Shown here: in pieces, positions 53,095 through 61,651 of the stretch
Position numbering within the stretch: the stretch's first letter is position 1
Layout: each line of letters starts with the position of its first letter
From: an uncultured delta proteobacterium
GTDB lineage: Bacteria; Desulfobacterota; Zymogenia; Zymogenales; Zymogenaceae
Direction of reading: 5' to 3'
Length of the DNA stretch: 64,000 bases
Assembly: GCA_963735595.1 (NCBI GenBank)
Contig: CAVTLK010000001.1
Location: forward strand, 896,001-960,000
Notes under the pieces: generated by a model
Told to the model about the DNA's origin: nothing
The model's input: the letters and a program-made list of their open reading frames with translations, nothing else
Databases searched by the model: none
Program-made: the position numbers and the translations under genes

Positions 53095-53755
53095 GTGCCC
53101 GACCGGCTCATGGAGATATACGACCGCCTCCTGATTGCGTTTCGGCCCCCAGCACTGGTGGCCGGCCGATACCCCCTTCGAGGTGGCGGTGGGGGCAATA
53201 CTCACCCAGAACACCAACTGGAAAAACGTCGAGCGGGCCGTGAAAACCTCAAGCGAGCAGGACATCCTTACGGTCGAGGGCATTGACGGTCTTGCCGAGG
53301 CGGAGCTTGCCGCGTTGATCCGGCCTTCCGGCTACTTTACCGTCAAGGCGCGCCGCCTGAAGAATTATATCGGACTATATCGCGGCGAATTACGGGGGAG
53401 ACTTCGCCGACTCGCTTCGACGGAGACGGCACCGAAAAGCGGCGTTGAGCTTCTCTCGGTATCCGGCATCGGCCCGGAGACCGCCGACAGCATACTGCTG
53501 TATGCCGGCGGCCACCCGACGTTCGTCGTCGATGCCTATACGAGGCGGGTCATGGCACAGGCACGGCTTGCCCCGGCGGACGCCCCGTACGAAGAGTTGC
53601 GCCGCCTGTTTATGGACAATCTCGCCCCCGACGTATCCCTCTTTAACGAGTATCACGCGCTGCTTGTCGCCGTGGGAAAGAACTTCTGCCGGCCGAAAGA
53701 ACCCCGGTGTGCGGGATGCCCGCTTGCAGACGACCGAAACGCTTCGGAAATATGA
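53095..53755 (+). CDS. Endonuclease III-related HhH-GPD glycosylase, frameshifted
   Basis: GPQHWWP..TPFEV.VGAILTQNTNW, GIGPETADSILLYA, FVVDAYT.R, EYHALLV, C-terminal Cys cluster. Confidence 0.88.
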
Positions 53756-54646
53756 CGGACAGAAAACCATCCGCCATACAAAACGGCCCGTTACCGGGCC
53801 TCGCCCCGGATCTCGAGGCCGGCGATATCGCCCGCTTTCGCGACACCGTCCTATCTCACTACCGCACCCACGGCCGGGACCTCCCCTGGCGCAGGACCCG
53901 CGACCCCTACCAGATTCTCGTCTCGGAGGTGATGCTCCAGCAGACGCAGGTGGGCCGCGTCCTCGAAAAATTCGAGCCGTTCGTCGAGCGTTTCGATGGT
54001 TTTTCGGCCCTTGCCGCCGCACCCCTGATCGAGGTCCTCTCCCATTGGAAGGGACTGGGCTACAACCGGCGGGCGCTCTACCTTGAAGGAGACGGCCCGT
54101 ATCGTTGTCGACCGCTACGCGGCGGCCGCTTGCGCCGATCTGCCGGACGAGCTCGTTAAACTCCCCGGCATAGGCGGCAACACCGCCGGGGCGATCGCCG
54201 CGTTTGCCTTCAACAGGCCCACCGTCTTCATCGAGACCAACATCCGCTCGGTCTTTATACATCATTTCTTCCCGGATACGGCCGATGTCAGGGACTCCCG
54301 GATTCTCCCCCTCGTCGACGCGACGCTCGACCGGGATAACCCGCGTGTCTGGTACTGGGCGCTCATGGACTACGGGACGATGCTGAAGGAAACGACCGCC
54401 AACCCGGGCCGCAGGAGTGCACACCATTCGAGACAATCGCCTTTCAAAGGCTCCGACCGGGAGATTCGGGGTGCGATCCTGAAGCAGTTGATAGGCGCGG
54501 GCGGGCCCGGGGCCTGCGGCGCGATGACCGAAACCGAGATCATCGCCGCACTGGCTATGGACCCGGAACGTATACGTAAGGTGCTTGCCCAGCTGATCGG
54601 CGAGGGGTTCATCATCAGGGAGCACGGACGCTGCCGGATCGCCTGA
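53752..54646 (+). CDS. mutY: A/G-specific adenine glycosylase, short MutY form, frameshift near 54083
   Basis: RDLPWR.T.DPY.ILVSEVMLQQTQV, W.GLGYN.RA, LPGIG..TA.AI, ETNIR, ALMDYG. Confidence 0.85.
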
Positions 54647-54761
54647 GCCCCGTTACGAGAGGCCGGGGACATACGTAAATCACGAAAGCTCACGTTTCGG
54701 TTGCCAAAAAAGTTGGTCCGTGCTACTATCGGGCAATCCATCCCATTATGCAGGTGTGACC

Positions 54762-55916
54762 ATGGCCCGGAAATACATCGTAAAAGCCGTTAAAATCATT
54801 GTGGTGTTTCTCGTCGTCGCACTTCTGATCCCGGCAGGCTTCGTCGTGGTCTCGGTCGTACGGCCGAACCGTTCGGTCGTCGCCGAAGGGCTCGGCATCG
54901 AGGTATGGCCGGCCGTTGCCGACGGCAGACACAACTCCAACACTGACCTCGTCTTTTTTAAGGATGCGTTCTGGCTCATTCACGCATCGGCCCCGTGGCA
55001 TTTCGCTTCTGAAACGACACGGCTCGTCTTATGGAAGTCGCCGGACGCCAGGACCTGGGAAAGGGTTGCCGAGTTCAGCAACCCCGGCCAGGATATCCGC
55101 GATCCGAAGCTCGTGGCTATCGGGGGCCGCCTCATCCTCTATGCCCTCAAGAATATCTCGTTCGAGGCAGAGCCCTACCTGACGGCGGCCGCCACAAGTG
55201 AGGACGGCGTTACGTGGACCGAATTTGTCGACATGGAACCGGGGGGCTGGCTCTTCTGGAGGCCCGAGACGCCCGACGGCGGCAAGACCTGGTACATGCC
55301 TGCGTATTGGCACGAACACGGCAAGTCGGTGCTCCTGATGTCCACGGACGGCCTTGCGTGGGGAATCAACTCCATCATCTATTCGGGAGACGTAAACGAC
55401 GAGACCGCGGTCATTTTCCTGCCGGACGGAATGATGCTTGCCACGGCGAGGCTGGAAGTGTCCGGGTATTACTTCGGCGATAACCGGGGCAACACGCTGA
55501 TTGCGACGGCGGAGCCCCCCTTTATGACATGGAGCTACCACCACAGCGATGTTACGAGGCTGGACGGCCCGGCGCTTTTTGCCTACAACGGCCGCGTCTA
55601 CGCCGTCGGGCGTTACCAGCCCGGCTGCAAATCCACCCCCTTTGAGACCGGCAGCATCCTGGCAAAGAAGAGGACCTCCCTCTTCCTGGTGGAGGAGGAC
55701 CGTCTCGTGTGGCTCTCCGACCTGCCGAGCGACGGCGACACGTCGTACGCCGGGGTCGTGGTTCGAGGGGACGAGGCCTACGTTTCATATTACACGAGCG
55801 GCATAAAGCGCGACTATCCCTGGATCATCGGGATGCTCCTGGAATCCGATATCATGATGGCGAAGATAGACCTCAAGAAGCTCGAGGCGCTGGCGGTGGA
55901 GCGTCTCGCACAATAG
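54762..55916 (+). CDS. Membrane-anchored Asp-box (BNR) beta-propeller, sialidase-like, copy 1
   Basis: N-terminal TM; SPDARTW, SEDGVTW, STDGLAW; DIRDPK; GDTSYAG. Confidence 0.8.
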   Translation: MARKYIVKAVKIIVVFLVVALLIPAGFVVVSVVRPNRSVVAEGLGIEVWPAVADGRHNSNTDLVFFKDAFWLIHASAPWHFASETTRLVLWKSPDARTWERVAEFSNPGQDIRDPKLVAIGGRLILYALKNISFEAEPYLTAAATSEDGVTWTEFVDMEPGGWLFWRPETPDGGKTWYMPAYWHEHGKSVLLMSTDGLAWGINSIIYSGDVNDETAVIFLPDGMMLATARLEVSGYYFGDNRGNTLIATAEPPFMTWSYHHSDVTRLDGPALFAYNGRVYAVGRYQPGCKSTPFETGSILAKKRTSLFLVEEDRLVWLSDLPSDGDTSYAGVVVRGDEAYVSYYTSGIKRDYPWIIGMLLESDIMMAKIDLKKLEALAVERLAQ

Positions 55917-55994
55917 CTGATCTTTCAATGAGTGCCACTTGTCAATCGTAGAAGAACGCTAATTGAGTATAACTACTACGCGAGGTATTGTACA

Positions 55995-57149
55995 ATGGGA
56001 CGATATATCGGAAAACTGGCGAAATGGCTGGGGACCGCAGTCCTGGTCGTTGTGTTGGCTATAGGTCTCATCGTTCTCTATTTCTATCTCAGGCCGAACA
56101 AATCCGTCATATCCGAGCAACTGGGCGTCGAGACGTGGCCCGCCGTGGCCGACGGGAGACATAATTCAAACACCGACATGATCTACTGGAAAGACGCCTT
56201 CTGGCTGATCCACGCGTCGGCCCCGTGGCATTTCGCTTCTGAAACGACACGGCTCGTCCTATGGAAGTCGGCGGACGCCAGGACCTGGGAAAAGGTCGCC
56301 GAGTTCCAAAATCCGGGGGAGGATATTCGCGACCCAAAATTCGCGGTGATCGACGGCATCCTCTTCATGTACTCCCTCAAGAACAAGAATTTCCCCGAAG
56401 CCGAGCCTTACTTCACCCTCGTAACATCGAGCCTCGACGGGATTGCCTGGGAGCCGACGGTGAGCGTCAATCAGGACGGCTGGCTCTTCTGGCGGCCGAA
56501 ATCACCCGACGGGGGTAAGACCTGGTACGTTGCCGCTTACTGGCACGAGCACGGTAAATCCATCCTGCTGAAATCGGCGGACGGGCTGACATGGGAAAAG
56601 GTCTCCGATATCTATACCGGAGACTTTAACGACGAGACGGACATAGAATTCCTTGCCGACGGAAGGCTGCTGGCCACGGCACGCCTCGAGGTGGCGGGCT
56701 ATTATTTCGGCGATAACCGGGGCAACACCCTTATCGCGGTGTCGCCCCCGCCCTACACGGAGTGGACCGAAAACCACAGCACCGTTACAAGGCTGGACGG
56801 TCCATACCTTTTTACTTACAACAACCGGGTCTATGCCGTCGGACGTTTTCAACCCGGCTGCAAATCCACCCCCTTTGAGACCGGCAGCATCCTGGCAAAG
56901 AAGCGGACCTCTCTCTTCCTCGTGGAGGAGGACCGTCTCGTGTGGCTCTCCGACCTGCCGAGCGACGGCGACACGTCGTACGCCGGGGTGGTCGTAAGGG
57001 GAGATGAGGCGTATGTGTCGTACTACACGAGCAATATAAAGCACGACTATCCCTGGATCATCGGGATGCTCTCGGAATCCGACATCATGATGGCAAAGAT
57101 AGATCTCAAGAAGCTCGAGGCCCTGGCGGTCGATATGGCGGCACGTTAG
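55995..57149 (+). CDS. Membrane-anchored Asp-box beta-propeller, copy 2
   Basis: Tandem paralog with long identical DNA blocks. Confidence 0.8.
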   Translation: MGRYIGKLAKWLGTAVLVVVLAIGLIVLYFYLRPNKSVISEQLGVETWPAVADGRHNSNTDMIYWKDAFWLIHASAPWHFASETTRLVLWKSADARTWEKVAEFQNPGEDIRDPKFAVIDGILFMYSLKNKNFPEAEPYFTLVTSSLDGIAWEPTVSVNQDGWLFWRPKSPDGGKTWYVAAYWHEHGKSILLKSADGLTWEKVSDIYTGDFNDETDIEFLADGRLLATARLEVAGYYFGDNRGNTLIAVSPPPYTEWTENHSTVTRLDGPYLFTYNNRVYAVGRFQPGCKSTPFETGSILAKKRTSLFLVEEDRLVWLSDLPSDGDTSYAGVVVRGDEAYVSYYTSNIKHDYPWIIGMLSESDIMMAKIDLKKLEALAVDMAAR

Positions 57150-60971: not shown

Positions 60972-61063
60972 GACACCGGTGAGGGGATTAGGCGGGCTGA
61001 GCAAAAACCGCATCCGCTCCCGGACGTTTCCGGGAGAGCTATACGGGTTGGACGCGTCCCCCA

Positions 61064-61507
61064 TCAAGCAAGCCTGCTGACCAGCAGGACCGCGGAGTTT
61101 GGTCAGAGTCCACAGAATTCGCTCGTCTGCCGTATCGGCAGCGGTGCGCGGTCCCTCGGGATCCGCTCAAACCCGAGCCCCTCGAAAAAAGCCGCCGCAG
61201 TCATGGTCAGGAGATAGAGCTCCCGGACACCCGCCTGCCGCGCGTGGTGGATAAGCCCCCGTACGACGGCCTGGCCGTATCCCCTGTTTCGCTCCCCCTG
61301 CGTCACCGCCAGCGACCGTAAGAGCCCGTATTCCCCGAGAATTTCCACCCCGCCTGCCCCGACGACCGATCCGTCGGCGCGGGCCAGAAAAAGAGAACCC
61401 CGCTTTTCGGGAATATCGGATGAGGGAAGCCCGTTCTCCTCGAGCAGGGCCATGATAAACGGGACATCTCGCTCAGTGGCCGGGGCCAAAACTATTCCAC
61501 GCCTCAC
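61064..61507 (-). CDS. ArsN2-like GNAT N-acetyltransferase, probable selenoprotein (UGA at 61103-61105 read as Sec; 147 aa)
   Basis: LL...GLP..D, GLLRSLAV....R.RGYG, LYLLT.TA..FF...GF, EFCGL-[TGA]-PNSAVLLVSRLA*. Confidence 0.8.
61068..61093 (-). promoter_or_regulatory. Putative bacterial SECIS element
   Basis: GCGG-U(bulge)-CCUGCU-GGUC-AGCAGG-CUUGC; apical loop starts 21 nt after the UGA. Confidence 0.7.
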
Positions 61508-61622
61508 GTTTTCCCCCTCTCATCGCCGTCTGGTGTCTTTTGTTCGGCTACCGGCGCAGTATAGCACACCCGTCACGGAGGCGCCATTAAAACAAAATCC
61601 CTCATCGGGCAAATATCTCGTA

Positions 61623-61651
61623 TTGACAATTCAGCGGGACTGCGCTATAGT
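61623..61651 (+). promoter_or_regulatory. Sigma70 promoter of the HAD phosphatase gene
   Basis: TTGACA-17 bp-TATAGT. Confidence 0.6.

Follow-up and report, generated by a model that had tools for sequence, protein, structure and literature searches.

The arsN2-family GNAT acetyltransferase gene at 61064..61507 on the minus strand of the window, the whole stretch of 64,000 nucleotides analyzed here, very probably contains an in-frame UGA that is recoded as selenocysteine, and it would then represent a new, lineage-restricted selenoprotein family. Comparison of its sequence with relatives also supports, with good confidence, the reading that best explains the gene, namely that it is the selenoprotein form of ArsN2. 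The open reading frame begins with GTG at 61507 and runs for 134 codons to a TGA at 61103-61105, giving a 134-residue product that ends in EFCGL. This TGA (61103..61105, minus strand) is the codon of the predicted selenocysteine 135, assigned from the conserved Cys column and the TGA-bearing orthologs described below. Beyond it the frame runs on as PNSAVLLVSRLA, 12 read-through codons at 61067..61102 (minus strand) that bear the last GNAT beta-strand in an AlphaFold model, to a second TGA at 61064..61066 (minus strand), which comparison with orthologs identifies as the true stop codon; the protein made by read-through is 147 aa long. A purine-rich stretch resembling a ribosome-binding site, recognized by eye from the sequence, lies 5 nt ahead of the GTG at 61513..61521 (minus strand). 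A terminator-like hairpin with a T run at 61011..61026 (minus strand), placed by a consensus scan between arsN2 and a convergent TetR-like gene, is a weak candidate because the scan found 2 such elements against 1.3 expected in shuffled sequences.

Assignment to ArsN2, as proposed in the earlier note, is borne out by the NCBIfam profile NF040501 (arsenic resistance N-acetyltransferase ArsN2; curated cut-off 125 bits), on which the 147-aa read-through protein scores 146 bits over residues 16-143 with C substituted for U, and 137.9 bits when the score is taken directly from the genome. The protein reaches no other family cut-off in the family profile search. N-acetylglutamate synthase (ArgA / S-NAGS) was rejected with scores below the respective cut-offs (PRK07757, 49 against 154 bits; PRK07922, 42 against 180; TIGR01890, 28 against 203), as was ArsN1 / phosphinothricin acetyltransferase, whose profiles NF040503, NF040504 and NF040502 give no match at E <=0.01. 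The family is large, with 2848 representatives at E <=1e-30. Like its members, the window protein keeps the GLP, GVE, GLLRS, LYLLT and EFxxL-C-P-x-S motifs and has equal length; unlike them, it would carry Sec in place of the conserved Cys and has C-terminal residues that appear to be driven by the SECIS (LLVSRL versus xMxKxL), and a second Cys six residues further on, found in 95 of 178 Cys forms, is Leu. It also departs from ArsN2 as defined in lying outside an ars operon: in the text of PMC6465285 bearing on arsN, arsN2 genes are originally defined by their location in ars operons, and ArsN2 (clade 2 arsN) is the arsN clade nearer to glutamate N-acetyltransferases, only ArsN1 being studied there. 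The relevant part of a 2025 review describes arsN function as only partly understood (PMC12607644), metagenome surveys count ArsN2 among arsenic-resistance genes, and no ArsN2 substrate was found in the accessible portions of the published literature outside subscription journals.

The case for recoding starts from the column occupied by the TGA. Homologs were collected (251), of which 201 were aligned after a motif filter, one of the 50 dropped being a truncated protein; the 178 aligned proteins outside the close truncated group are taken as full-length homologs. The column is Cys in 176 of these 178, confirming the supposition that the TGA stands opposite a conserved Cys. The 25 closest proteins (60-93% identity) comprise 24 that end exactly one residue ahead of this column and one, P0011, that has Cys; a profile search added three further truncated clusters (P0260-P0262), for a total of 27. 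Five other candidates for truncation (P0128, P0129, P0158, P0207 and P0316) were rejected as pattern artefacts and are actually full-length Cys forms. The stop codon was read as DNA in seven genes, most of the 27 truncated clusters being known by protein end, and it is TGA in all seven: those of the genome holding the window (G000), of G001, G002 and G003 from the same genus, of G005 from the same family, and of the metagenome contigs L041 and L042 (L009 and L010 duplicate two of the seven and are counted once). In every one of them the frame and the family motif run on for 11-12 codons past the TGA to a final stop, TAG in four and TGA in three. The codon is identical in three contigs from two other, unrelated studies (2/4 sequencing runs). 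Public protein sets carry the TGA-form genes short, which agrees with the expectation that standard gene callers would truncate them, and the public record of the window gene itself is a 116-aa fragment (P0259).

Five of the family's 10 genomes carry the TGA form; G007, of the same family, has TGC at the column and lies outside the TGA clade, and the other four genomes yield only weak matches to other GNATs. Outside the family, the TGA form is absent among 18 matches in a 401-genome sample of the phylum (12 with Cys and 3 more with the Cys motif; 3 weak matches and 1 contig-end match fall short of the column) and in class-level searches of 17, 7, 96, 68 and 83 genomes, which overlap the phylum sample. 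In the genomes sampled the Sec form thus far appears confined to a portion of this one family of uncultured sediment bacteria. A quick maximum-likelihood tree (106 rows), built from an alignment that was cut ahead of the Cys column and has few columns, unites G000 with the 27 truncated clusters in a single clade (SH-aLRT 94), and the Cys proteins P0011 and P0255 are nested in that clade. In both, the Cys is followed by PNSAV-L/P-L-VGRL, a tail of the SECIS type. Because Cys proteins that retain such a tail are nested in the clade, the simplest reading is a single gain of Sec from Cys and one reversion: Cys would have been replaced by Sec once in a clade of the family, the SECIS would have reshaped the residues at the C-terminus, and Cys would have been regained in at least one lineage. 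The proteins of the revertant cluster (P0011, P0254 and P0255) differ from one another solely in residues under the former SECIS, where the hairpin may have decayed or, alternatively, the assemblies may be in error.

The gene gives every indication of being maintained. Over 130 codons, dN/dS is 0.10-0.32 (10 pairs from 5 intact orthologs), and dS between TGA orthologs reaches 1.7. Single-base insertions occur 5' of the TGA in G001 (one) and G005 (two), in or beside homopolymer runs; given these sites, and since selA of G005 is broken too, they are likely assembly errors. From these comparisons and the modeled fold, the TGA gene appears to be alive and to need read-through.

The putative SECIS hairpin lies within the last codons, at 61068..61093 on the minus strand, and is identified by its fold, its conservation and its likeness to that of E. 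coli fdhF. Its core, CCUGCU-GGUC-AGCAGG at 61088-61073, was located as claimed in the earlier note, with loop nucleotides +21 to +24 after the UGA; it consists of a 6-bp upper stem (61088-61083 with 61078-61073), the GGUC loop (61082-61079) and an unpaired U at 61089, above a lower stem. The fold of nucleotides +9 to +38 has an energy of -13.2 kcal/mol (z -2.23), equalled by 3 of 200 shuffles, and the whole 61-nt stretch is no more stable than shuffles (z 0.37). The bulged U with a lower stem that had also been described holds in part: a single unpaired base is present in all six aligned sequences (U in five, A in one), but only one G-C pair beneath it is common to all six, and the best fold in G000 sets the U inside a 1x1 U/C loop, beneath which is a lower stem of 4 bp. 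The bSECIS model, as laid out in section 5 of PMC13188914, has a loop of 3-9 nt with G in its opening two positions, a stem of 4-16 bp, a spacing of 16-37 nt and an MFE <=-7.5; with a GGUC loop, 6 bp, 20 nt and -13.2 kcal/mol (an energy that varies with the stretch folded), the hairpin agrees with that section of the model. The predicted likeness to the E. coli fdhF SECIS is likewise real, both having an 11-nt spacer, GG followed by an unpaired U at +14, a UGC-like stem end and a GGUC loop. It differs from fdhF in its upper stem (6 bp versus 4), in the start of its loop (+21 versus +19), in the presence of only 12 codons beyond the UGA, and in belonging to a transferase instead of an oxidoreductase. 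Hairpins of this kind are common enough that the structure alone is weak evidence, since 511 of 8000 random genomic TGAs pass a rough SECIS model, 23 of them with a GGT loop; the script is crude, folding the E. coli fdhF stretch at -6.2 in the same window. An Rfam scan returned no SECIS match at the hairpin and three chance matches, and the SECIS pattern was absent from the viral contigs searched. What goes beyond chance is the TGA on a 99%-conserved Cys column together with conservation across genomes, rather than the hairpin alone.

That conservation was followed codon by codon in six gap-free related sequences (88 codons), G005 being excluded for its frameshifts. Third positions are invariant in all six hairpin codons (+5 to +10) versus 17 of 75 upstream, and a single triplet is used at 4 of the 28 upstream codons that are invariant and highly degenerate. 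The longest invariant run among the 88 codons, 13 nt, covers the loop and the 3' arm, and conservation is higher in the DNA 3' of the TGA than in the coding sequence 5' of it. All 42 cells of the stem are paired in the six sequences, with one change, C-G to U-G, and no compensatory double change. Within the hairpin the encoded residues differ from those usual in the family: Leu 142 stands where 160 of 178 proteins have Met, and Ser 144 where 134 of 178 have Lys/Arg, which would be expected if the codons were set by RNA. From the pattern of substitution, selection appears to act on the hairpin as RNA. Orthologs that have both the TGA and a conserved hairpin, which the recoding proposal would predict, are seen in the five genomes as well as in L041 and L042.

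The genome also holds the selenocysteine machinery on which the proposal depends: selB (319 bits), selD (355 bits; it too has a TGA in frame), tRNA-Sec (75.9 bits on RF01852; the only TCA-anticodon tRNA among 47) and selA, which is split between two frames by a frameshift at G000:C4:329754-331101. SelA is intact in 8 of 9 relatives and broken in G005, and the split in G000 is probably an assembly indel; tRNA-Sec is present in all five TGA genomes. Motif scans for further selenoproteins in G000 gave mostly noise, the credible cases being two fdhA genes, selD and a glutaredoxin-like gene. The fdhA genes at C1:658593 and C1:684632 (minus strand) and selD at C3:6076 (plus strand) have Sec codons with SECIS-like hairpins, one fdhA showing a GGUCU loop at +19 and selD a GGGUC-type loop, and a second selD-like gene lies at G000 C3:24665-25476. 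The in-frame TGA of the glutaredoxin-like gene (C1:781467) falls in a U-P-Y-C motif; the gene, in the region G000:C1:779939-782153 (minus strand), sits just 3' of the only LMW-phosphatase/ArsC-like match in G000 and 5' of a glutaredoxin-thioredoxin reductase-like fusion, a cluster for which selenium-dependent arsenate reduction is possible.

Other accounts of the TGA fare poorly. It might be a genuine stop, leaving a 134-aa protein or a decaying gene, as could be read from the short calls of all TGA-form genes in public sets, from the frameshifts in 2 of 5 genomes, and from the ordinary use of TGA as a stop in this genome, where it ends 195 of 522 frames of at least 500 codons. This is very improbable, however, given that all 7 genes keep the frame and the family motif going beyond the TGA, that the DNA past it is better conserved than the coding sequence leading up to it, that dN/dS is low (0.10-0.32) and that a core strand would be lost; moreover, homopolymer runs lie at or next to the insertions in G001 and G005, and the G005 assembly has a broken selA as well. 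The same use of TGA as a normal stop in long frames rejects an alternative genetic code. SECIS-dependent insertion of Cys occurs in some deltaproteobacteria, and decoding of the UGA as Cys or Trp by a variant tRNA would suit the Cys of the family column and the split selA of G000; against this the sole tRNA with a TCA anticodon is called SeC at 75.9 bits on RF01852 and selA is intact in nearly all relatives, so that such recoding has a slighter chance still than a genuine stop. A misread TGC or TGT in the G000 assembly, which does contain indel errors (selA), has a negligible probability and is refuted by independent genomes, with an identical TGA in six other genes at dS up to 1.7 and in contigs of two unrelated studies. 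A different kind of selenoprotein, a thiol oxidoreductase acting through a CxxU motif, was also considered and rejected. The C-G-L-U noted earlier is present in the window sequence, but the motif is not conserved: of the truncated close homologs, 7 of 24 have a Cys three residues before Sec, as do 3 of the 7 TGA genes checked as DNA, Ser being commonest at this site, and <10% of the 178 Cys forms have one, the residues there being mostly Ala, Ser, Arg, Thr or Lys. The resolving Cys is thus unconserved, and the model is GNAT throughout, without a redox fold. The CxxU appears to be incidental, a recent change in the subclade around G000.

Selenocysteine insertion, the preferred reading, would proceed by binding of SelB-GTP-Sec-tRNA to the GGUC hairpin 20 nt past the UGA, incorporation of selenocysteine at residue 135, and translation of 12 more codons that complete the GNAT fold. 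The AlphaFold model, computed with Cys in place of Sec, reaches a pLDDT of 94.4, and in it the last beta-strand spans residues 140-145, beyond the UGA, so stopping at the TGA would remove a core strand. In structure it best matches the GNAT domain of the N-acetylglutamate synthase from N. gonorrhoeae (ngNAGS; 2r8v, Foldseek E 6.6e-13; Z 19.9, rmsd 2.0, 144 aligned, model 1-147 on chain 283-435), and M. tuberculosis Rv2747 (5yge) gives Z 18.9. N-acetylglutamate synthase shares with the model both the fold and the acetyl-CoA motif R/Q-x-x-G-x-G, here RNRGYG, whereas identity is only ~24% and a Cys/Sec sits in the loop preceding the last strand. In ngNAGS, according to the mechanistic account in PMC4490483, Arg316, Arg425 and Ser427 bind the glutamate carboxyls, Glu353 has been proposed as the base, and catalysis proceeds by direct attack. 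Arg316 and Glu353 have no counterpart in sequence alignments, Glu353 aligning with invariant Leu62, and Arg425 appears unconserved, in a register taken from end-to-end ranges. A gap-free C-terminal alignment based on those ranges would put Sec135 on Asn423, two residues before Arg425, and we infer from the model that Sec135 may adjoin the acceptor-binding loop of N-acetylglutamate synthase. An invariant ArsN2 residue, Arg64, resembles an Arg in the enzyme from M. tuberculosis. Leu62-Ser65 were required by the motif filter, but they are invariant in the unfiltered alignment too. With Arg316 and Glu353 unmatched and Cys/Sec so placed, the ArsN2 pocket would lack the glutamate-specific arginines and gain a thiol or selenol.

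A link between ArsN2 and arsenic that is independent of the family name comes from fusions of Cys-form proteins to Ars proteins: among 33 longer homologs scanned there are two fused to ArsM, one to ArsN1 (over cut-off), one to an ArsR-type protein and one to an ArsC-like protein. Fusion of the Cys-form domain to a cupin, to a response regulator, to an FAD-binding domain and to an ECF sigma factor also occurs, the proteins concerned being P0180, P0196, P0234 and P0236. At neutral pH a selenolate would bind As(III) more readily than a thiolate. The fusions to Ars proteins, with a pocket that would contain a thiol or selenol, favor Cys/Sec as a ligand of As(III), and we tentatively propose, at somewhat less than even confidence, that this residue binds the As(III) of an organoarsenical whose amine is acetylated. 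In such a mechanism the acetyl group would move from acetyl-CoA to the amino group as in N-acetylglutamate synthase, the Cys/Sec, in a loop corresponding to the Arg425/Ser427 loop, would be the single soft ligand for trivalent arsenic, and the substrate would be an organoarsenical such as a reduced arsenic-bearing analogue of glutamate, with Arg64 holding the carboxylate.

The genomic setting of the gene is conserved and offers no such link. A HAD phosphatase gene and a PgaB-like gene lie on one side, and a TetR-like gene, a hydrolase and a PLP decarboxylase on the other; at orthologous loci arsN2 stands alone, flanked by the HAD phosphatase, which is divergent, and by either a convergent TetR-like gene or a PLP decarboxylase. 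No ars genes occur among the neighbors of arsN2 in the window or in L009, L010, L013, L017, L041 and L042, and arsM and acr3 of G000 are on another contig, C5, the former at G000:C5:698518 without an internal stop and the latter closing a cluster of a permease, a small Cys-rich protein and a thioredoxin-like protein (G000:C5:770647-775394). Elsewhere in the window, a sigma-70 promoter with 11/12 consensus positions precedes the HAD phosphatase at 61623-61651 (plus strand), divergent from arsN2; tandem, highly alike genes at 54720-55916 and 55932-57149 (plus strand) encode N-terminally anchored proteins of ~400 aa; and at 53135-54646 (plus strand) two genes lie side by side that we take, from their motifs, to be endonuclease III-like and MutY-like, the latter apparently split across two frames near 54083-54159.

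Two other functions for the same selenoprotein were weighed. It may be a stand-alone N-acetyltransferase of amino acids or small amines unrelated to arsenic, with Cys/Sec serving as a substrate ligand, general base or redox switch; the conserved neighborhood lacking ars genes, the proximity of ArsN2 to glutamate N-acetyltransferases in the arsN passages of PMC6465285 and the non-arsenic roles suggested in the pertinent text of PMC13163355 speak for this, while the fusion partners of Cys forms, which include four different Ars proteins, the definition of arsN2 genes within ars operons in the same passages of PMC6465285, and the lack of matches in alignments to the glutamate-binding Arg316 and base Glu353 of ngNAGS speak against it and leave it unlikely. 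Alternatively, Sec could be a nucleophile in a ping-pong relay through an acetyl-selenoester, the acceptor being perhaps an oxygen or sulfur on arsenic and not an amine. Sec generally takes the place of a catalytic Cys, and some other activation may be needed where Glu353 aligns with an invariant Leu62, yet the nearest solved enzyme works by direct attack without an acyl-enzyme, in the mechanistic account of PMC4490483, and the relay is more doubtful than a non-arsenic role. The arsenical-ligand mechanism, extended to the whole family as a Sec-using acyltransferase that captures and acetylates trivalent organoarsenicals in its acceptor pocket, with the C-terminal Cys as the working residue throughout ArsN2, is put forward with greater reserve than the mechanism itself.

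The earlier note had known of no GNATs as a characterized selenoprotein class, and the selenoprotein catalogue examined agrees: neither an acetyltransferase nor any GNAT is among the 119 prokaryotic selenoprotein families in Table 1 of PMC13188914. Additions to the list of selenoprotein families are published regularly. No report joining a selenoprotein with ArsN2, GNAT or acetyltransferase was found in literature outside subscription journals, and term searches gave nothing on a Sec acetyltransferase in deep-Sep (text and four supplements of PMC12013277) or in the main text of BSepDB (PMC13326102), and only irrelevant matches in SelCysML (PMC13745706). Arsenic-linked selenoproteins already catalogued are ArsM, arsenate reductase and ArsM fusions (PMC13188914, Table 1); the protein described here is like them in placing Sec where an arsenic-handling Cys would stand, in anaerobes, and unlike ArsM and arsenate reductase in fold and reaction. 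It would add a transferase to the known kinds of selenoprotein and extend the catalogue (the 119-family table, 2026) to the GNAT fold. The gene is also a case in which gene callers clip the product 12 residues short of its C-terminus, too near the end for the protein to seem broken.

Pairs of Sec and Cys proteins are a long-standing way of spotting working cysteines, and the natural Sec form marks residue 135 as probably the important one in ArsN2, a family that now offers a three-way comparison of Sec, Cys and Ser together with a natural revertant. If Sec does capture arsenicals, the enzyme would belong to a class of selenoenzymes beyond redox chemistry and methyl transfer, and there would be direct evolutionary evidence for the C-terminal Cys as a working residue across the uncharacterized ArsN2 family.
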